NCBI GenBank assembly: GCA_045536365.1
Contig: JAZSNL010000030.1
Span: 91,748 to 155,747, forward strand
DNA: 64,000 nt
From: Bacilli bacterium
GTDB lineage: Bacteria > Bacillota_I > Bacilli_A > ML615J-28 > CAG-313
Direction of reading: 5' to 3'
Part shown: one piece after another, positions 7,779-63,526 of the stretch
How positions within the stretch are numbered: the stretch's first letter is position 1
How the letters are laid out: every line of letters starts with the position of its first letter
Translations under genes and position numbers: made by a program
The notes under the pieces: model-generated
What the model was told of the DNA's origin: nothing
What the model saw: the letters and a program-made list of their open reading frames with translations, nothing else
The model's database searches: none

Positions 7779-8001
7779 AGGATTTAAAAAATATTTTATT
7801 GGTATTATATTTATCTTCGTTTTAACCTTAATAATAGGGAATTTTGAAGTTAAAGCTTCGTCCCAGATTTGGGTAAATTATAAATATTCAGACACTGATT
7901 TATATGATTTAACAAATACATATAATTATGATAAAATAACAATAGAGGAATTATACGCAAAGGAAAATGGTGAATTAGCAACTAGGGATTATAACTCATA
8001 G
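7750..8001 (+). pseudogene. Truncated secreted/membrane protein
   Basis: Signal-like hydrophobic stretch ending VKA-S, then an early stop with coding-like sequence continuing out of frame. Confidence 0.4.
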
Positions 8002-40063: not shown

Positions 40064-40483
40064 ATGGCATTAAGAGAATTATTACAAGAATTTGTAGATA
40101 AAAGCTATGAAGAATTAGTTAATTTAGCTACTTTTACTTTAGTAGAATTATGTAAAGAAATTGAAAAATTATCACCTGAACATGCAGAAATAAGTTCTAT
40201 GGTTGTATCTAGTTATTTAGCATCTAGTGTTGCAGCAGATGGTAAAATTACTGAGTTAGAAACTAAATTCTTAAATGAAATATTAAAAATGGATAGTGAA
40301 ATGACTGATTTCTTATTAGTATTAGGTAAAGACTCTAAACAAATTGAATTACTAGATCAATTATTTGATTCTGCACCTGACGATTTTAAAAAACTAGCAT
40401 TAGTATTCTGCTTATCTTTAATCGCAATTGATGAAACTATTAATCGTGATGAAGTTGCTTTTATTGAAAAATTATTAAATTAA
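40064..40483 (+). CDS. TerB-like protein (paralog 2)
   Basis: VAADGKITELETKFLNEIL / AIDETINRDEVAFIEKLL. Confidence 0.7.
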   Translation: MALRELLQEFVDKSYEELVNLATFTLVELCKEIEKLSPEHAEISSMVVSSYLASSVAADGKITELETKFLNEILKMDSEMTDFLLVLGKDSKQIELLDQLFDSAPDDFKKLALVFCLSLIAIDETINRDEVAFIEKLLN

Positions 40484-40495
40484 TAAGGAAAAAAT

Positions 40496-40912
40496 ATGAC
40501 AATTAACGAAGTATTAAAACGATTCGAAGAAAAGAGTTATGAAGAATTAGTTATAGTTGCAGAAGGAGCTTTAGCTAGTCTTTATACTGAATTAGAAAAA
40601 GTATCTGATAATGTTCAAATTGTTCCTCACGTAATTATTGGCTATCTAGCTGCTAGTGTTGCGGCAGATGGAAAATTATCGAATAAGGAAATGCAATTTT
40701 TAAAAGATGTGTTAGGTGTTGATAATGAAAAGGCAAATATAATATTATCACTTGGAAAAGATCCTCAACAAGTTGCTACTTTAGATTTATTATTTGATAT
40801 GGGTTCTAAGGAATTTAGAGAAATTGCTTTAGTATTTTGTTTATCTTTAATTTCGATTGATAAGGAAGTTAATCGTAAAGAAAGAGATTTTATAGAAAGA
40901 TTGGCAAATTAA
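40496..40912 (+). CDS. TerB-like protein (paralog 3)
   Basis: VAADGKLSNKEMQFLKDVL / SIDKEVNRKERDFIERL. Confidence 0.7.
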   Translation: MTINEVLKRFEEKSYEELVIVAEGALASLYTELEKVSDNVQIVPHVIIGYLAASVAADGKLSNKEMQFLKDVLGVDNEKANIILSLGKDPQQVATLDLLFDMGSKEFREIALVFCLSLISIDKEVNRKERDFIERLAN

Positions 40913-40913
40913 T

Positions 40914-41324
40914 ATGAGTTTAAAAACAGTAATTGAAGGTTATATTAACACTGAATATAATGAATTAGTTGGTACCGCAAAACTTTCTTTACAAGTTGTT
41001 TATCCACTTTTAAAGAATGTTTTTGAAGAACAAGCATCGTTTATTTTTATTTCATTCTTAGGTGCTGGTGTTGCGGCAGATGGTTCTTTTTCTGAAAAGG
41101 AAAAGAAGTTCTTAAAAGATGTTTTCAATTTTAATGATGATATAAATGAAGATATCTTTAAATTAGGATCAAATGAAGAAGTTGTTTCTTTAGTTGATAG
41201 AGTTTTTGATATTTTAGATGGTGAATCTAAAATAGCGTTATTAAACTTATGTTTATGTTTAATAGCAGTGGATAAAAATGTTGAATTAGTTGAAACAGAG
41301 TTTATCCAAAAATTATTAAATTAG
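40914..41324 (+). CDS. TerB-like protein (paralog 4)
   Basis: VAADGSFSEKEKKFLKDVF / AVDKNVELVETEFIQKLL. Confidence 0.7.
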   Translation: MSLKTVIEGYINTEYNELVGTAKLSLQVVYPLLKNVFEEQASFIFISFLGAGVAADGSFSEKEKKFLKDVFNFNDDINEDIFKLGSNEEVVSLVDRVFDILDGESKIALLNLCLCLIAVDKNVELVETEFIQKLLN

Positions 41325-41377
41325 GTAAAATGCGAAGAATCGCTTTTATATAAAAAAAACAAAAGGAGAAAATTAAA

Positions 41378-41794
41378 ATGGGTTTACAAGAAATTTTACA
41401 AGATTACGTTAATAAGGATTATCAAGAATTAGTTAGCTTAGCAGCTCAATCATTCGATGTATTATATCCTGCTTTCGTAGAAGCTTTCGGTAAAGACGAT
41501 GCTACATTAATGGTTGCTTCATTTATGGCTTCATCTTTATCAGCAGATGGTAGTTTATCTCAAAAAGAAATTCAATTCATCTGTGATTTATTAGGTGCAG
41601 ACGCTAGCTTTGCTCAAAATTTATACAACTTAGATGGTCAAGGTCAAGCTTCTGAATTAGCTGATAAAATCTTTGATTCAGTTCCTGAACAATTCAAATC
41701 TCATTTATTAAATTTATGCTTATGCTTCCTTGCATGTGATGAAACTATTTCACGTACAGAAGTTGCATTTATTGTTAGATTATTAGAACAATAA
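41378..41794 (+). CDS. TerB-like protein (paralog 5)
   Basis: LSADGSLSQKEIQFICDLL / ACDETISRTEVAFIVRLL. Confidence 0.7.
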   Translation: MGLQEILQDYVNKDYQELVSLAAQSFDVLYPAFVEAFGKDDATLMVASFMASSLSADGSLSQKEIQFICDLLGADASFAQNLYNLDGQGQASELADKIFDSVPEQFKSHLLNLCLCFLACDETISRTEVAFIVRLLEQ

Positions 41795-41802
41795 GATAAT
41801 AA

Positions 41803-42222
41803 ATGGATATCAAGATTCTACTTAATCAATATACTAATCTTTCATATGATGATTTAATTAAATCTTCTAAAGAATCATTAGAATACATTATTCCTCAATT
41901 AAAATTAGTATTAAATTCAGAAGAAGATGTATCGCAAGTATTAATATATTTTACGTCTGTATTATTGTCTGCGGATTCTACCGCAACTGAAAAAGAAATA
42001 ATGTTTTTATCTGATTTATTTTCTTTATCAAATGATGAAATTAAAGCTATGTATAAGATTGGTTTAGTTGATGAAATTACAATTGTTATTGATCATTTAT
42101 TTGATTCATTAAATCCTGGTTTAAAAACACATTTATTAAATTATTGTTTGTGTTTTATGGCCGTAGATGGAAATATTGATAATAAAGAAATAGCATTTGT
42201 TGAAAAATTAGTTTCTGAATAA
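41803..42222 (+). CDS. TerB-like protein (paralog 6)
   Basis: LSADSTATEKEIMFLSDLF / AVDGNIDNKEIAFVEKLV. Confidence 0.7.
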   Translation: MDIKILLNQYTNLSYDDLIKSSKESLEYIIPQLKLVLNSEEDVSQVLIYFTSVLLSADSTATEKEIMFLSDLFSLSNDEIKAMYKIGLVDEITIVIDHLFDSLNPGLKTHLLNYCLCFMAVDGNIDNKEIAFVEKLVSE

Positions 42223-42255
42223 AAAATGTATCAAGTTATACTTGATACTTTTTTT
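42223..42255 (+). terminator. Rho-independent terminator after the TerB-like array
   Basis: GTATCAAGT-t-ATACTTGATAC near-palindrome followed by Ts. Confidence 0.65.
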
Positions 42256-42321
42256 ATTATAAAAATATAAAAAAACAATAAATTATGATATACTAAAAAT
42301 ATATAACTAAAGGAGTCGATT

Positions 42322-45300
42322 ATGAAACTAGTCTTTGTATCATCAACATTTAAAGATATGCAATTTGAAAGAGATATGTTACATACCCATGTAATACCAC
42401 TTCTTGATTCAAAACTAACAAGATACGGTGAATCAGTAAGATTTGGTGATTTAAGATGGGGAGTAAATACAACTGAATATTCTGAAGAAGAAAGTTCAAA
42501 AAAAGTATTAAAAGTATGTCTTGATCAAATTGATGATTGTAAACCATATATGATTGTCTTTATCGGTGAAAGATATGGTTGGATTCCCTCACAAGATTTA
42601 ATTAAAAACGCCGCTATCTTAAAAGGAATAGATCATGTAGAAAATGACATTTCGGTTACCCAATTAGAAATTGAATATGGAGCTTTATTAAACCCTGACT
42701 ATGAAGGAAGAATATTATTCTATTTCCGTGAACTTGATAAAGAAGGAATGACTCCAGAAGAAAGAAAAATATATGAAGCTGAAAGCAGTCTTCATGAAGA
42801 AAAAATAAAAATCTTAAAAGAGAAAATATATAATTTATATCCTAATTATGTTAAAACATATCAAGCAAAATGGAATAAAGAAACTAAAAAAGTAGAAAAT
42901 TTAATTCCATTAATGGATCAAATAAAAGAAGATTTAGAAAAAATCTTTATTTCTGATATAGAACAATATAATTCACTTGACTGGCAAGAAAGAGCCTTAC
43001 TTGCAAGTCATGAATACTTTAAAGAAAAAGCTAAAGTATATGTAAATACTAAGACAATTCATACTAAAATAAAACAATTAAATCAAAGTGTTTCATTGTG
43101 GATGTCTCCTAATTCTCCTTGTTCATTTGAATACTATGTTGGTAAAGAAGGAACTGGTAAAACAACAAGAGTGGCATATGAATATATGAGTCACTATCAT
43201 AATTCAATTAATAAAAATGATGGTAAAATCCGTGTTGTTATTCCTTTCATTTATCAAATAGATGAATATACATCAGTTTTAGAAAATTTATATTATATTA
43301 TAATTTATCATTTAGAAAAAGCTTTAGGAATAAAACATAAAAAATATGATTATAAAGATCATAAATATTCTAATCCACCAGAAGCAGTAATTGATTATTT
43401 ATTATCATTAATTAAAAAAATAAAAAATAAAAATATTTTTGTTCAAGTAGTAATAGATAATATTAAAGTAAATGATTTCTTTACAACATTTAAAATAATG
43501 GAAGAAAAATTAAATAATTTTGAAAAGAAAACATTCTATGAAAATTTACCTATCTTTTTTACCTTTGGTATAAATGAAGAATATTTACCACCTAATACTC
43601 CATTTTTTGATATATCTGAATCATTTCCTTTAGATAAATTATATAAAGAAGAAATTGAAGAAATAATTTATAATATTTTAAAATTCTCAAGAAAAGAATT
43701 ATCAAAAAAAGTAATTAATCATTTATTATCAAAAGAACAAGCAAACGATCCATATTATTTATCACTTGTAATTAATCGATTATTAATGTTAGACTCTGAA
43801 GATTTCCAAAACATTAGAAATCTTGGAGATGGCATGGATGCGATAAACGAGTATATGATTATGATAGTAGATCAAGTAGGAGATAATGTTAAAGATATCA
43901 TTAAAGAAATAGTTAAAGAAACAGCACAAAGAATTGATTTTGATTATGTATGTAAATTCTTATCTGTAACTGTATATACAAATCTATGGTTAAAATTATC
44001 AGAATATGAAGATATCTTTAAATTTGCAAATTGGGAATATAATGAGTTAAATACTTCATTATTATTAAATAATTTAAAATATATCTTTGAAAAAAGAGAT
44101 AATAATTCAGAATATAAGATTACTAATAAAGAAGTATTAAAAGGAATAAAAGAATTTATTATTGAAAATAAATATGATTATGTATTAGATATTTTATTCA
44201 AATATTTAGATAAATTACCTAAGAATCATGAATTAAAAAATTATAGTTTACATTTTGCGATGTCAACTCATAATGGTAATTTTATTGCGGAATATTATTT
44301 AAAAAATACTAATATTGAAAAAATTAAAAAAGATGATTTAGAAACATATAAAATATATAGTGATTTTATTACAAAATTAGTAAAAGAAAAAGAATATGAT
44401 GTCTTAATTGATTTCTTTAAAACATTATGTAAGAAAAATGTTTCAGTTAGTCATTATTATTTATTATCAGCTTTAACTAAAAATAAATTAAATAAAGAAG
44501 AATACAAAGAATTTGTTGATTTCACTATCGATTTACATACATGGTTAGTTGAAAATAAACAAATTGATAATGAATTTAAAGATACAATCTTTATTTGGTT
44601 ACAACTATCTACATGTATTAATTTAGCAGAGTTAGAAACAATGATATCATTTGAAAGAGCTTTGATTATATATAACTATTGTAGTTTTAGTAAAAATAAA
44701 TTACCAAGAGAATTATTAGCAGAAGGATCAATTTTATTATTAAGAACAACATTAAGAAATATGAATGTTTTTGATAACTATGAAGTTGTTAAAAATTATT
44801 TTGAAGAAATGATTGATTTTAATGCTGAATCATTAGAAAAGGTTGTATTTAAAGATTATTATAAATATATAATTAAAGGCTATATTGCAAATTTAATTAA
44901 TAAATTAGCTTATAAAGTTAATGATGATATATATAAAAAATACCTTGCGGTATATGAAAGAACATTAAATAGTGGATGTAAGAATAATAGTTTTATTAAT
45001 ATGAATTCAATTGTTCAGGAAACATACGCAATAGGTTATTTCCATCATGCATATTTATATGTTAATTTTGATGATAGTGATTATTTAAAATCAATTATTA
45101 ATTATATTTATTCAGATAATGTATTACCATTATTAAATGATATTGATCAATGTATCTTTTCAGTAGAATATTATGATTATAAAAAAGAAGATGATGTTGA
45201 AAATATGTTATTTAGAGGATATAAAAAGACTTTGTTTTTAAATAATTATTATGATGGATATAAGAAAAATGTTTTTGTTATTATTTCAATGATTCTTGAA

Positions 45301-45819
45301 AGATTAAGTACACTTAATAGTGAAGTATTAGATGAAATATCTAATTCATTAGAAGAATTATTTATTCAAATTATTAATCATTATAATTTAGAATTTGAAA
45401 ATGGTAGTGATGAATTTATTTCTTCTGCCGCAATGGATAGTTTAGAATATTTTTCATATATAATTTCTCAATTATATTTATTTGATGAAACTGAAAGTAT
45501 TAAAAGAATATTAAATAATGTTTTAGTTTCTATTAATAATAGTTTAGAAGAATCTAATCCTTATATTAATATGATTCTTTATACTTTACTATATTCTTTC
45601 ACTGATTCTACAGATGAAGAAGACGAAGTGTATACTGATGAATTTGTGAAAAATTATGAGTTAATGGATAAAGAAAGTGATTTATATAAAAATTATAAAA
45701 AATTAATTAATGCGTGTTTATTATATATAACTGGTAGTGTTTCATTTGAAGAATATAATGAATATTTATATGAAATATATTGTTTGAAGTTTGATACTGA
45801 TAGAGTAGTTAATGGATAA
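42322..45819 (+). CDS. DUF4062-domain P-loop NTPase (NACHT/STAND-like), 1165 aa
   Basis: VFVSSTFKDMQFER, DLRWGV, FIGERYGWIP, SVTQLEIEYG (DUF4062); Walker A GKEGTGKT; Walker B VVIDN; long helical C-terminus. Confidence 0.82.
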   Translation: MKLVFVSSTFKDMQFERDMLHTHVIPLLDSKLTRYGESVRFGDLRWGVNTTEYSEEESSKKVLKVCLDQIDDCKPYMIVFIGERYGWIPSQDLIKNAAILKGIDHVENDISVTQLEIEYGALLNPDYEGRILFYFRELDKEGMTPEERKIYEAESSLHEEKIKILKEKIYNLYPNYVKTYQAKWNKETKKVENLIPLMDQIKEDLEKIFISDIEQYNSLDWQERALLASHEYFKEKAKVYVNTKTIHTKIKQLNQSVSLWMSPNSPCSFEYYVGKEGTGKTTRVAYEYMSHYHNSINKNDGKIRVVIPFIYQIDEYTSVLENLYYIIIYHLEKALGIKHKKYDYKDHKYSNPPEAVIDYLLSLIKKIKNKNIFVQVVIDNIKVNDFFTTFKIMEEKLNNFEKKTFYENLPIFFTFGINEEYLPPNTPFFDISESFPLDKLYKEEIEEIIYNILKFSRKELSKKVINHLLSKEQANDPYYLSLVINRLLMLDSEDFQNIRNLGDGMDAINEYMIMIVDQVGDNVKDIIKEIVKETAQRIDFDYVCKFLSVTVYTNLWLKLSEYEDIFKFANWEYNELNTSLLLNNLKYIFEKRDNNSEYKITNKEVLKGIKEFIIENKYDYVLDILFKYLDKLPKNHELKNYSLHFAMSTHNGNFIAEYYLKNTNIEKIKKDDLETYKIYSDFITKLVKEKEYDVLIDFFKTLCKKNVSVSHYYLLSALTKNKLNKEEYKEFVDFTIDLHTWLVENKQIDNEFKDTIFIWLQLSTCINLAELETMISFERALIIYNYCSFSKNKLPRELLAEGSILLLRTTLRNMNVFDNYEVVKNYFEEMIDFNAESLEKVVFKDYYKYIIKGYIANLINKLAYKVNDDIYKKYLAVYERTLNSGCKNNSFINMNSIVQETYAIGYFHHAYLYVNFDDSDYLKSIINYIYSDNVLPLLNDIDQCIFSVEYYDYKKEDDVENMLFRGYKKTLFLNNYYDGYKKNVFVIISMILERLSTLNSEVLDEISNSLEELFIQIINHYNLEFENGSDEFISSAAMDSLEYFSYIISQLYLFDETESIKRILNNVLVSINNSLEESNPYINMILYTLLYSFTDSTDEEDEVYTDEFVKNYELMDKESDLYKNYKKLINACLLYITGSVSFEEYNEYLYEIYCLKFDTDRVVNG

Positions 45820-45929
45820 TGATATTAACTTATAGTTGTTATTTTTAATATATTTGACTAAAACATTAAAATATAGTATAATATTAAGCAATATGTAATA
45901 AAGTAAAAAAAGGAGTTGAAGTTTGTTAT

Positions 45930-46961
45930 ATGTTGACGTCGTTAAGTGATCCTGCCGGGCCTTTGTCCTGGTTAGTAATTGTAGGTTTAGTTTTTTTATC
46001 TGCATTCTTTTCTGGTTGTGAAGTTGTGTATAATTACGCAAACAGATATAAAATTAAAATTTGGGCAGATGACGGTAAAAAATCAGCTAAGCTTGCGATA
46101 AAAGTAATAGAGATGATTGATAATACGGTTATTGCAATATTAATAGGTAATAATATTGTAAATATCGCATCTTCTATTCTTGCATCTACGCTATTAATAG
46201 CGTTAATAGGTCCATATGGATCTGTAGTTTCTACAATATGTTTAACTATTGTAATTTTTATATTTGGTGAAATATTACCAAAGAATATTGCGAGGGCAAA
46301 TGCTAATAAATTAGCATTGGTTTTATCTTATCCAATATTCTTTTTAATGATTGTTTTTACACCTTTAACATTGGTATTTAAATTTATTGTTTTTGTTGTT
46401 TCAAAAATGTTTAGATTAAAGGAAAATACAGAAGAAGTTTTAACAGAAGATGATTTCCAAGATATCATTGAAAAGATTAGTGATGATGGAATTATTGATG
46501 AAGATGAAGGTGAAATCATTATAGCAGCGATAGACTGGGGAGATACTTTAGTTGGTGAAGTGTTAACTAAAAGATCTGATATTGTTGCGATAGATATTAA
46601 AAATTGTAATGAAAAATATATTAATGAGTTTATTGTTGAAAACTCATATTCTCGTATTCCGGTATATGAAGGTTCAATTAATAATATTATTGGAATATTA
46701 CATGTTCGTATGTATCTAAAGGAATTATTTAATAATAAAAAAGTAAACATAAAAGACATTCTTTTAAAACCATATATAGTAAGTCCTAAAATTAAGATTG
46801 ATGAAATCTTTGAAGGATTTAAGGAACATCAAACTCATATTGCAATTGTAAAAGAAAAGAATAGAACAATTGGTATGGTTACGATGAAAGATATTTTAGA
46901 GGAATTAGTTTCAAATATTGACGAAGCTAACACTTCTGATGAAGAAGGGGGTGCTGAGTAA
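45930..46961 (+). CDS. CNNM/DUF21-CBS (hemolysin-III/TlyC-like) transporter
   Basis: SAFFSGCE, ILIGNNIVN, FGEILPK, YSRIPVY, CBS pair. Confidence 0.9.
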   Translation: MLTSLSDPAGPLSWLVIVGLVFLSAFFSGCEVVYNYANRYKIKIWADDGKKSAKLAIKVIEMIDNTVIAILIGNNIVNIASSILASTLLIALIGPYGSVVSTICLTIVIFIFGEILPKNIARANANKLALVLSYPIFFLMIVFTPLTLVFKFIVFVVSKMFRLKENTEEVLTEDDFQDIIEKISDDGIIDEDEGEIIIAAIDWGDTLVGEVLTKRSDIVAIDIKNCNEKYINEFIVENSYSRIPVYEGSINNIIGILHVRMYLKELFNNKKVNIKDILLKPYIVSPKIKIDEIFEGFKEHQTHIAIVKEKNRTIGMVTMKDILEELVSNIDEANTSDEEGGAE

Positions 46962-48238
46962 TGCCAAGTTGGGGAATTATTGCAATAATAGCAATTGTTT
47001 TATTAGTAGCATTATCTGCGTTCTTTTCAGGAACAGAAACAGTTTTTGCAAATGTCAATAAGATTAAATTAGAAAAACTTGCAAAAGAGGGTAATAAAAA
47101 AGCAGATCTTGCTAATAAATTAGCAAATAATTATCCTTCTTTAATTTCAACTATTTTAATTGGTAATAACTTAGTTAATACTGCAGCGGCTACAATAGCT
47201 GGTGTATTATGTACAGCGATATGGCAAGATAAAGGTGATGTTATCGCATTGTTTGGTATGACTTTAGTTGTATTAATATTTGGTGAAATTTTACCTAAAA
47301 ATATTACCGCAAAATATAGTAATTCATTATCATTAATTCTTGCAGTACCTATTAAATTATGTGAATTAATTTTTAAACCAATTGTTTTTGTTATAACAAA
47401 AGCAATTGATAAATTATCACCTATTTGGACTCCTAAAGAAGAGGATGAAGAAACTGTAACAGGTGAAGAATTAATAAACATGATTGAAGAAATTGAAGAA
47501 CAAGGTTTTATTGATGATGATACAAGTGAACTTGTTCAATCAGCGATTGAATTCAAAGATACAACTGCTCACGAAATAATGACACCAAGAGTTGATATTT
47601 TTGCTTATAACTTAGAAGATGATATTAATGAATTAATTCATTCAGAAGGTTTATTTGATTTTGCAAGAGTAATAGTTTATGAAGAATCAATTGATAATAT
47701 TAAAGGATTCATTTCAACAAGAAAATTATTAACATTAAAATTAGAAAATAAAGAAATTAATTTAGATGAATTAATAACACCTGTTATTTTAGTTCATAAA
47801 ACTAAATCAATAAGTGATTTACTTACAACATTTAAAGAAACAAAAACTCATATTGCAGTTGTTGTTGATGAATACGGAGGCACTTTAGGTATCGTTACAT
47901 TAGAAGATATTTTAGAGGAAATCGTTGGTGAAATCTGGGATGAAACAGATGAAATCGAAGAAGAGTATGTTGAAAAATCAGATACAGAATTTATTATTGA
48001 TGGTGATATGAATATCTATGATATGTTTGAACTTATCGGATTAGATGAAGAATTAGTTGAATCTGATTATGAAACAGTAGGTGGATGGTGTACGGAAATT
48101 TTAGATGATTTCCCTAAGGAAAATGATACTTTTGAATTTAGAAATTTAAAAGTTACTATTTTAAAAGTTGATGGAGTTCGTGTTGAAAATATTAGAGTTG
48201 AAGTAATTAACTCTGAAGACGAAGAAAAAGAAGAATAA
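46961..48238 (+). CDS. CNNM/DUF21-CBS-CorC_HlyC transporter
   Basis: SAFFSGTE, FGEILPK, IMTPRVD, VVDEYGGTLGIVTLEDILEEIVGEIWDETD. Confidence 0.92.
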   Translation: MPSWGIIAIIAIVLLVALSAFFSGTETVFANVNKIKLEKLAKEGNKKADLANKLANNYPSLISTILIGNNLVNTAAATIAGVLCTAIWQDKGDVIALFGMTLVVLIFGEILPKNITAKYSNSLSLILAVPIKLCELIFKPIVFVITKAIDKLSPIWTPKEEDEETVTGEELINMIEEIEEQGFIDDDTSELVQSAIEFKDTTAHEIMTPRVDIFAYNLEDDINELIHSEGLFDFARVIVYEESIDNIKGFISTRKLLTLKLENKEINLDELITPVILVHKTKSISDLLTTFKETKTHIAVVVDEYGGTLGIVTLEDILEEIVGEIWDETDEIEEEYVEKSDTEFIIDGDMNIYDMFELIGLDEELVESDYETVGGWCTEILDDFPKENDTFEFRNLKVTILKVDGVRVENIRVEVINSEDEEKEE

Positions 48239-62185: not shown

Positions 62186-63526
62186 ATGGGAAATATCGAT
62201 TTATTTATAAGCTACGAACATGAATCAAAAATAATAGCAGATAATATCTGCTCTGTATTAGAATCAAAAGGAATCCGTTGTTGGTACGCTCCTAGAGACG
62301 TTAGAGGCGATTATGCAACATCAATAGTTGAAGCAATCGAACACTGCAAAGTTTTCGTTTTAGTACTAAACCCTGCAGCATCTGAATCTCCACATGTTTT
62401 AAACGAAGTAGAAATGGCATATCAACGTATTTTAAAAGGAGAAATTACAATTGTTCCTTTTAAAGTAGAAAATGGTGTTTTCTCTAAAGCAATGGAATAC
62501 TATGTAAAAAGATTACATTGGATAGATGCCGCAAGTGATTCACTTGATAAAGCGATCTTAGAATTATATGAAAAACTAATACCAGTATTAGGAATTGAAA
62601 GAGTAACAACTAATGAAAATAATAATGATGAAAATCATGAAACTAATTTAAAAAGAAAAGTGAATCAATATTATTCAGCTGATGACTTAGTAGAAGTTAA
62701 AAGATTATATGGTGAAGAAGCATTCTTATATGATATTGAAAGACCATATTATGATCGATTATTCTATAATAAAGAAAAAGCAGTTGTTTTAGATTTTAAT
62801 GTACTTTGTCCTTATCATGCGGTAAAGAAATTTGCAGATCGTACAGAAGTATCAAAAGTAGCTTATTTAACATACAGTGAAGCTTCAGTAATGGAAGGAA
62901 ATGAAATGTTAAAACAAAATGGCGATAATGAAAATAAAAAATTCTTCCTTTTTGATCAATCTACAACAAAAGTAGAAGAAGCTTTACCTAAAATCTTAAA
63001 TGAATTAAACGCAACAGGATTTGATTTCTTAAATCTAACAATGTCAATAATGGACTTTGGAAACCCATTCAAAATCTTAAATAAAATTAAAAAATTCTTA
63101 AATCCCGGAGCAGTTGCATTTATAAGAGACGTTGATGATGGTGTAGTATTTGCATATCCTGATGAAAAAGGCTTATTTAAAGAAGTTCAAAACTTCTATA
63201 AATATGATACATTAAGTGGATCAAGAGAATCAGGAAGACAAATCTATGATTTAATGAAAAAACTAGGCGCAATCGATGTAAGATTAGAAAGATGTGGTAT
63301 TAATACAACAGGAATGGATTATCATCGTAAACACCTTGTATTTGAAAGTTGGTTTGGTTTTATTCCAAATGATTTTAAAATCATGTTAGAACGTGATCCT
63401 CAAGATAAAATTGCGAAAAAGATAGTTGAATGGTTAGATGAACATTATGATGATTTAGAAGAACAATTCTCACAACCTAATTTTATCTTTAATTCAGGAT
63501 ATGTTATTTATACAGTAAGATTTTAA
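62186..63526 (+). CDS. TIR-domain protein fused to a class I methyltransferase-like domain
   Basis: LFISYEHES...GIRCWYAPRD...VFVLVL...SPHVLNEVEMA (TIR_2 with Glu); C-terminal FDFLNLTMSIMDFGNPFKILNKIKKFLNPGAVAFIRDVDDG resembles MTase post-motif II/III. Confidence 0.8.
   Translation: MGNIDLFISYEHESKIIADNICSVLESKGIRCWYAPRDVRGDYATSIVEAIEHCKVFVLVLNPAASESPHVLNEVEMAYQRILKGEITIVPFKVENGVFSKAMEYYVKRLHWIDAASDSLDKAILELYEKLIPVLGIERVTTNENNNDENHETNLKRKVNQYYSADDLVEVKRLYGEEAFLYDIERPYYDRLFYNKEKAVVLDFNVLCPYHAVKKFADRTEVSKVAYLTYSEASVMEGNEMLKQNGDNENKKFFLFDQSTTKVEEALPKILNELNATGFDFLNLTMSIMDFGNPFKILNKIKKFLNPGAVAFIRDVDDGVVFAYPDEKGLFKEVQNFYKYDTLSGSRESGRQIYDLMKKLGAIDVRLERCGINTTGMDYHRKHLVFESWFGFIPNDFKIMLERDPQDKIAKKIVEWLDEHYDDLEEQFSQPNFIFNSGYVIYTVRF

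Follow-up and report, generated by a model that had tools for sequence, protein, structure and literature searches.

An NLR-like DUF4062-STAND protein with an orphan α-solenoid in a Bacilli bacterium, a candidate single-gene anti-phage sensor-effector

What is the function of a 3.5-kb, very AT-rich gene that encodes a DUF4062 domain followed by a STAND NTPase and a long helical tail, and that lies next to an array of TerB-like genes? The question is raised by a 64,000-nucleotide stretch of the genome of a Bacilli bacterium (GTDB lineage Bacteria; Bacillota_I; Bacilli_A; ML615J-28; CAG-313; GenBank assembly GCA_045536365.1, contig JAZSNL010000030.1, positions 91,748 to 155,747 of the forward strand), called the window in the following, in which the gene occupies positions 42322 to 45819 of the plus strand. 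An original prediction, made from the letters of the window, had proposed an NLR-like protein composed of a DUF4062 effector, a STAND NTPase and a helical sensor, and had considered it a candidate for an undescribed defence system. The analysis described here suggests that the protein (the target) is probably a solitary NLR-like sensor-effector that recognises a phage protein, oligomerises, depletes NAD+ and thereby aborts the infection. Directly observed are the order of its domains, catalytic and Walker residues that are all intact, the patchy accessory distribution of the gene, the signs of a separate transcription unit and the lack of a conserved partner gene.

Domain architecture

The open reading frame (ORF; 42322-45819, plus strand) runs over 1165 codons without a single internal stop and encodes an NIR(DUF4062)-STAND-α-solenoid NLR-like protein of 1165 amino acids; the large ORFs that surround it are all on the same strand. 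An AlphaFold2 model of the full-length protein, built on 52 homologues, reached a mean predicted local distance difference test score (pLDDT) of 85.6 and a predicted template modelling score (pTM) of 0.81, and places with confidence, in this order, the head, a nucleotide-binding domain (NBD), a helical domain (HD), a winged-helix domain (WHD) and the solenoid. Beyond residue 442 the model is all helical save for one β-hairpin, over about 720 residues. When the full model was compared with the PDB by Foldseek, the best match was Avs3 bound to phage terminase (8dgc), with Apaf-1 (1z6t, 3sfz), CED-4 (2a5y), NOD2 (5irm) and NRC2 (8xuo) also found, all at a probability of 1.00. The three-part NLR-like architecture that the original prediction had read from the sequence is thus recovered by Pfam, by the model, by Foldseek and by the domains of relatives, and the same holds for its component claims of intact DUF4062 motifs, Walker A and B sequences and a helical C-terminus of about 700 residues. 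The coding sequence is also as AT-rich as had been stated, with a GC fraction of 0.20-0.24 along the gene as compared to about 0.27 for the mean of the window, the bin 44001-46000 being the lowest of all.

Could such a gene be a relic, an intact-looking ORF that is decaying or inactive and has lost its function? There is some material for this idea, as the same genome contains a DUF4062 ORF of 166 residues, perhaps a truncated remnant, that is devoid of the first strand, and Walker A and B residues have been lost in 11 of 52 family members. Yet a frame of 3.5 kb has stayed open in DNA of 20-24% GC, where stop codons are frequent, the catalytic and Walker residues are all intact, and the orthologue in the syntenic metagenomic locus L010 is 78% identical (91% over head residues 1-100), matching the 68-94% of the genes next to it. 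Since frame and motifs are intact the pseudogene reading was rejected, and we consider it scarcely credible.

The effector domain and its predicted chemistry

Which enzymatic activity is to be expected of the head? DUF4062 (PF13271) matches residues 4-119 with an E-value of 2.6e-13 and a score of 50.4 bits, the cut-off being 24.7, and it is the sole domain that Pfam finds in the target; a whole-genome scan agrees with the call. The target has each of the head motifs SSTFKDMQFERD, DLRWGVNT, GERYGWIP and SVTQLEIEYGAL, which vary little or not at all among 52-100 relatives. In the full-length model the predicted NIR/DUF4062 NADase-type effector domain, residues 1-240 (42322-43041, plus strand), consists of an α/β core (residues 1-140), a β-hairpin (177-192) and two long stalk helices (195-237); a model of the domain by itself has a pLDDT of 89.1.

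The only solved structure that matches the head by sequence is 11gz_A, deposited as 'Telomerase protein component 1', which is the NADase domain of TEP1 (E 2.3e-13 with the single sequence, E 7.5e-18 with the family profile). As the profile match extends over positions 4-208, the conserved head domain comprises about 210 residues and reaches far past the 82 positions of the Pfam model. In the alignment to 11gz_A, Glu116 of the target (SVTQLE116IEYG; codon at 42667-42669, plus strand) pairs with the glutamate at position 115 of the 220-residue chain, which would correspond to E1008 of TEP1 if the chain is the published 896-1113 construct preceded by two additional residues. Mutation of E1008 abolishes the NADase activity of TEP1, and the other catalytic glutamates of known DUF4062/NIR proteins are E97 in KpSwz, E108 in PsAvs2 and E98 in Vulcan. 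Not one of 52 close relatives or of 100 broader ones has a substitution of Glu116, and on the grounds of this alignment and invariance it is the predicted catalytic glutamate.

Alternatively, the head could cleave another N-glycosidic substrate, such as cytidine monophosphate (CMP), a deoxynucleoside monophosphate or a nucleoside, in the manner of a nucleoside 2-deoxyribosyltransferase or a 'CMP hydrolase', with sensing and STAND switch remaining the same. DUF4062 is distantly similar to nucleoside 2-deoxyribosyltransferase domains, and the head of PsAvs2 was first annotated as a CMP hydrolase. All DUF4062 domains that were active in assays (KpSwz, PsAvs2, Vulcan, VstA, the Eva01 model and TEP1) nevertheless used NAD+, and the closest solved relative by sequence is itself an NADase domain, so that a different substrate appears distinctly unlikely.

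The STAND module

The P-loop NBD of the predicted STAND module covers residues ~262-440 (43105-43641, plus strand), as supported by motifs, by the alignment to relatives and by Foldseek. It contains the Walker A sequence GKEGTGKT (residues 274-281; 43141-43164, plus strand) and the Walker B-like sequence VQVVID, which ends with D379 (residues 374-379; 43441-43458, plus strand). The target thus has both GxxxxGK[ST] and hhhhD, and both motifs are kept in 40 of the 52 relatives. In the secondary structure of the AlphaFold2 model a β-sheet domain (269-437) is followed by helices (442-553) and by a helix-helix-β-hairpin-helix arrangement (559-615) that is typical of a winged helix; the HD (residues 442-553) and the winged-helix-like domain (555-615, with the β-hairpin at 590-599), together encoded by 43645-44166 on the plus strand, complete the tripartite nucleotide-binding oligomerisation domain (NOD) module.

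The target itself matches no STAND family model in Pfam, NCBIfam or PADLOC. Relatives whose alignment to the target is unbroken over residues 1-640, such as P0138 (33% identity, E 2e-91), however match NPHP3_N (56.7 bits, above the cut-off), nSTAND1 and NACHT within the aligned region; one of them matches NB-ARC, and Pfam detects TPR repeats in the tails of relatives. Since the generic AAA+ proteins ORC/Cdc6 and RFC were also among the Foldseek matches of the full model, again at a probability of 1.00, the fold by itself does not separate a STAND protein from generic AAA+ proteins. The central module is predicted to be a STAND NTPase by transitive homology and modelled fold, with motifs and fold in agreement.

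A part of the family has departed from the canonical nucleotide-binding motifs. Eleven of the 52 proteins in alignment A1 (P0037, P0040, P0049, P0089, P0096, P0101, P0106, P0111, P0117, P0120 and P0072) have lost the canonical Walker A register, most of them having GxGxG[AR]KT in its place and P0072 having GPT-MEITA. The Walker B aspartate is lost jointly with Walker A in these proteins, being replaced by M, V, I, L or A, except in P0072, where D379 is still there. Glu116 is retained in all 52 members, including this Walker-less subclade, which may work without ATP hydrolysis, to judge by these substitutions, and which offers a natural experiment on the need for ATP in such switches.

The C-terminal α-solenoid

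What does the protein sense? The presumed sensor is an α-solenoid formed by residues 620-1165 (44179-45816, plus strand), which in the AlphaFold2 model is uninterrupted and has pLDDT values of mostly 85-95. Structure prediction had been proposed as a check on the C-terminal sensor, and the all-helical solenoid is its outcome. No Pfam family matches this solenoid; profile search and Foldseek both detect a weak similarity to importin-β/karyopherin-type solenoids.

The tail is also clade-specific. A restricted word-based search, which may be weak on low-complexity, AT-biased sequence, found residues 640-1165 in only 5 other proteins, all of them headed by DUF4062; P0007 and P0008 align over their full length at 54% identity, which brings the metagenomic proteins with this tail to about 7 in total. 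The same search was used to look for the sensor fused to effectors other than DUF4062, and only DUF4062-headed proteins were returned.

It could be imagined that the orphan solenoid represents a new type of sensor for a trigger peculiar to the phages that infect uncultured gut Bacillota of low GC, and not for terminase, portal or the other triggers known from Proteobacteria. In a bolder form of this idea the adjacency to the TerB-like and lyase genes, which is kept in two species, would reflect a real coupling of an NLR-like NADase to a metabolite or stress pathway. We regard this as a rather improbable proposal.

Distribution of the family

Is the gene part of the regular equipment of its lineage? 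An exhaustive phmmer search over 1.84 billion cluster representatives yielded 7122 matches at E ≤ 1e-3 and 662 at E ≤ 1e-30. Nearly all of the strong matches cover the query from residue 1 to about 600-680, while the matched proteins are between about 700 and 2016 residues long, and the module that more than 600 relatives have in common extends to about residue 610-660. The family thus has a conserved effector and NOD and interchangeable tails, as found in the Avs and NLR families. Named homologues come from gut and rumen metagenome-assembled genomes (MAGs) of Clostridia, Oscillospiraceae, Lachnospiraceae, Bacilli and Erysipelotrichaceae.

When whole genomes were searched, the gene was missing from 40 of 40 relatives within its family or order and from 398 of 398 other sampled genomes of the class, leaving the genome of the window as the sole carrier in either set (1 of 41 and 1 of 399). 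Universal, syntenic conservation in the lineage, which the original prediction had named as speaking against its proposal, is therefore not what is found; the gene is accessory, patchily distributed and variable in its genomic context, as is typical of defence genes. This distribution, taken together with the recent work on NIR domains described below, lends support by analogy to the defence role that had been suggested.

The genome of the window (~1.7 Mb in 36 contigs, ~26% GC) contains two further DUF4062 ORFs. The first, on contig C4 (L003 1-1866, minus strand), is a second DUF4062-headed NLR-like gene, of which at least 622 residues are visible in a 736-residue frame that reaches the end of the contig. 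Its head is 35% identical to that of the target over residues 4-121, its P-loop reads SPIATGKT with the first glycine replaced, and its Walker B sequence, VLVAIDGFGDD, is of the NACHT style. The second, on contig C30 (L002 1528-2028, plus strand), is the 166-residue ORF mentioned above; it is located downstream of an ABC transporter gene, starts with MQLERD, lacks the first β-strand with the SSTF motif and is probably either a truncated remnant or a minimal stand-alone head. Several genomes hold 2-3 paralogues, and in gut or rumen MAGs two diverged NIR-STAND copies are found on different contigs in the pairs L024/L031, L025/L033, L028/L047 and L077/L083.

Relation to known systems

How new is such a protein? 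Within the past year three studies, all of them preprints, have described DUF4062 as an anti-phage NADase effector. Osinski et al. (10.64898/2026.05.01.722283) found DUF4062 to be a TIR-like NADase, showed that TEP1 is an NADase and named a DUF4062+AUX defence protein Swarozyc (KpSwz, with E97), which is activated by phage portal. Evangelion is a single-gene DUF4062+AUX defence family (Ibarra-Chavez et al., 10.64898/2026.06.25.731849). Le Mouellic et al. (10.64898/2026.09.04.749371) renamed the domain NIR, found that in an Avs2 protein (NIR-STAND-TPR, with E108) it is the effector that depletes NAD+, and added Vulcan (NIR-HEAT) and Vesta. The published experiments, among them those on an Avs2, show NAD+ depletion and abortive infection that depend on DUF4062/NIR. 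DUF4062 is accordingly reported on Avs and other NLR-like proteins in the 2026 preprints. Because of these three studies the word 'undescribed' in the original prediction is outdated at the level of the class; this clade and its orphan C-terminal sensor are not described.

A close parallel is the Avs2 protein of Pseudomonas chlororaphis (PsAvs2), which has a DUF4062/NIR head with a catalytic glutamate (E108, here E116), a STAND NTPase and a C-terminal helical-repeat sensor in the same order and, like the target, is a single-gene system. The target differs in that it matches no PADLOC Avs/AVAST model and that its sensor is an orphan α-solenoid without a TPR match in Pfam, for which no likeness to the terminase-binding sensor of Avs2 is claimed. 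Moreover, its hosts are gut Bacillota and not Proteobacteria, and it is known from sequence alone.

Vulcan (NIR-HEAT) and the DUF4062+AUX proteins Swarozyc and Evangelion share with the target the NADase head, which is predicted here, the single-gene organisation and a variable helical C-terminus, which in those systems is needed for sensing. KpSwz also has a small β-sheet and a helical stalk after the head, to which the β-hairpin and stalk helices of the target compare. These proteins are however devoid of a STAND NTPase, whereas the target has about 350 residues of NBD, HD and WHD between head and solenoid.

In the eukaryotic DUF4062-NACHT-repeat proteins TEP1, NWD1, NWD2 and NPHP3 the head is likewise N-terminal to the NOD. 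The TEP1 NADase domain is the closest solved relative of the target's head, and relatives of the central domain match NPHP3_N and NACHT of Pfam. TEP1 itself differs by having TROVE and WD40 domains and by working in vault and telomerase ribonucleoprotein particles; the target has neither domain, and its sensor is an α-solenoid. With bNACHT and other bacterial NLR-related proteins (Kibby et al. 2023) and with Avs1-5 (Gao et al. 2022) the target shares the effector-NOD-sensor logic and the patchy accessory distribution, and its best fold-level match is to an Avs protein, Avs3, ahead of Apaf-1, CED-4 and NOD2. In contrast to them it has no significant NACHT, NB-ARC or PADLOC match. Since no curated PADLOC Avs model matches, the target is not filed under Avs1-5 and is only said to work like an Avs or NLR-like protein.

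If the proposed function is correct, the class of NIR/DUF4062 NADase-NLR proteins would extend into uncultured, small-genome Bacillota of gut and rumen, whose phage defence repertoire is almost unstudied, and one more sensor domain without known relatives would be added. A specialist would not be surprised by this. The gene itself has chiefly annotation value, being missed by current sets of defence hidden Markov models (PADLOC 2023), and also exemplifies an orphan sensor in a group of hosts that has been little studied.

Proposed mode of action

How might the protein act? Its homology to proteins such as PsAvs2, Swarozyc, Vulcan, Evangelion and TEP1 would lead one to expect that the target has NADase chemistry, is activated by oligomerisation and serves in defence. 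At rest the protein would be autoinhibited. Upon infection the clade-specific C-terminal α-solenoid would bind a phage-derived protein, whereupon the STAND module, composed of P-loop domain, helical domain and winged helix, would exchange or bind nucleotide and oligomerise. The NIR heads, clustered in this way, could then hydrolyse NAD+ through E116, and the depletion of NAD+ would arrest the infected cell, resulting in abortive infection.

Several observations weigh against this proposal. Concerning the chemistry, Foldseek of the isolated head against the PDB gave no significant match and no TIR domain among the top 50; a TIR match at the level of the fold is thus not claimed, and the suggested TIR-like fold is based on the preprints together with the TEP1 sequence match. 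Furthermore, some human NIR proteins (NWD1, NWD2 and NPHP3) displayed no NADase activity. Concerning the switch, the residue that follows D379 is an asparagine in 48 of 52 relatives and not acidic, so that the STAND module may bind ATP yet hydrolyse it poorly. As to the defence role, PADLOC (PADLOC-DB v2, 2023 models; E ≤ 0.01) and NCBIfam gave no match to the target, albeit the original prediction had expected a novel system to produce no hit in a defence-system scan. Among catalogued phages no homologue was detected and plasmids yielded matches at the level of the DUF4062 domain only; the idea of carriage on phages or plasmids was dropped. Finally, the immediate neighbourhood of the target is mostly housekeeping and transport (CNNM/CorC, FeoB, MsrA, M20 peptidase) and no defence island, and most neighbours of its homologues are housekeeping genes as well.

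Genomic context and transcription

Does the gene belong to the TerB-like array that precedes it? The last gene of the array stops at 42222 and is followed by a perfect 9-bp hairpin (42228-42248; GTATCAAGT-TAT-ACTTGATAC) and a T-run, together an intrinsic-terminator-like element (42228-42257, plus strand) that would close the array. Its RNA folds with a free energy of -13.5 kcal/mol (z = -6.65), and 0 of 200 shuffled sequences folded equally well; terminator-like sites are also enriched, with 6 observed against 0.9 expected. Downstream of it lie an extended -10-like promoter element, TGATATACT (42286-42294, plus strand), predicted from the sequence and having no clear -35 element, and the ribosome-binding site AAGGAG (42310-42315, plus strand), 6 nt ahead of the ATG at 42322, of which GGAG is kept in L010. 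A caveat on the promoter call is that AT-rich DNA such as this has about as many promoter-like hexamer pairs as chance predicts (75 observed, 70.8 expected). The 14-nt -10 string TATGATATACTAAA is however identical in the orthologous spacer of L010, where the remaining spacer has diverged. Because of the strong terminator hairpin and this conserved string, the DUF4062-STAND gene most likely forms a transcription unit of its own, and the promoter-like sequence and separating terminator that had been noticed originally are both found again. At the place that corresponds to window 42228-42248, L010 has a different perfect hairpin (~7898-7925; GTGTTAAACGAAC-TTG-TTCGTTTAACAC), so that the structure is kept and the sequence is not.

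L010, the locus of the 78% identical homologue, is fully syntenic with the window: the DUF4062 gene comes after Flg_new, MsrA, M20 peptidase, a TerB-like gene, the lyase and five small paralogues, in this order. Its flanking genes are 68-94% identical to those of the window, and within the target itself the identity falls from 91% (head) to 66-79% (tail). A faster evolution of the target than of its neighbours was considered and discarded, as there is no excess divergence (78% versus 68-94%) and only the expected gradient from N- to C-terminus is seen. The homologues at 70% identity are located between the genes of an LRR protein and a MatE protein, the one at 57% within a mur/fts cell-wall cluster and the one at 54% next to APH and acyltransferase genes. 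The clade of 54-100% identity thus occupies at least 4 genomic contexts, and they have no neighbour in common, giving no sign of a partner gene or of a link to TerB.

At 34 more distant homologous loci two genes on each side were scanned, 129 proteins in total. The commonest Pfam families among them were TIR_2 (5), LRR_5 (4), DUF1963 (4), GNAT (3) and Metallophos (3), TerB was not among the families seen at least twice, and most matches were to single housekeeping families. PADLOC recognised 3-4 TIR/ThsB-type proteins, 2 each of mad2, mad3 and mad8 of MADS and 2 AriA (PARIS), and single matches to MzaA, a viperin-like protein, SoFic, PDC and an MTase; defence-type neighbours are thus present and, there being no control set, are not claimed to be enriched.

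It could be argued that the target is no immune protein and that it is a signalling ATPase with a functional link to the TerB-like/lyase operon upstream, such as a regulator of NAD+ that responds to stress or to a metabolite. In L010, the sole syntenic relative, TerB array and gene are likewise adjacent, and the surroundings of the target form no defence island. The terminator and the gene's own conserved -10 box stand between array and gene, though, and the homologues at 70%, 57% and 54% identity reside in three other neighbourhoods without TerB; moreover, TerB does not recur at the 34 distant loci and the gene is absent from all 40 relatives. With TerB kept only in the nearest relative, across the loci at 78, 70, 57 and 54% and the 129 neighbours, the link to the array that the original prediction had implied was rejected, and a function in the TerB-like/lyase operon appears very improbable.

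A further alternative concerns the way in which the head acts. The NIR domain could produce an NAD-derived messenger, resembling a cyclic ADP-ribose isomer or derived from ADP-ribose, that switches on an effector encoded by another gene, as in Thoeris, NAD+ itself not being depleted. A functional diversification toward signalling was raised in one of the NIR preprints (10.64898/2026.09.04.749371), and TIR-domain genes, with 5 of 129, are the most frequent neighbour family at the homologous loci. RyR or any other recurrent effector is however missing from the top families of these neighbours, no partner gene is conserved over the four contexts of the close clade, and the characterised NIR systems all yield ADP-ribose and nicotinamide, with bulk depletion. 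We therefore consider messenger production unlikely and favour the depletion of NAD+ by a solitary protein.

Additional features of the locus

The five small TerB-like paralogues at window 40064-42222 differ strongly from those at L010 5403-7893: copies 4 and 5 match the copies at the corresponding positions with 72% and 63% identity, whereas copies 1-3 reach just 31-49% with any copy of the other locus and the adjacent lyase is 94% identical, which points to turnover or replacement of array members.

Downstream of the target no terminator-like site was found ahead of the tandem CNNM/CBS (CorC-like) genes (45930-48238), which are preceded at 45854-45882 by a near-consensus promoter, TTGACT-17-TATAAT (11 of 12 positions). 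In a search for an empty site, exact look-up of the downstream CNNM protein gave no match, and the CNNM loci of other genera (L015) are too distant for a comparison of synteny. Further away in the window are a DUF6088 antitoxin-like gene, 9 kb upstream of the target, and, 16 kb downstream, a TIR_2-domain protein (62186-63526; E 3.6e-18) encoded behind a double-GNAT gene.

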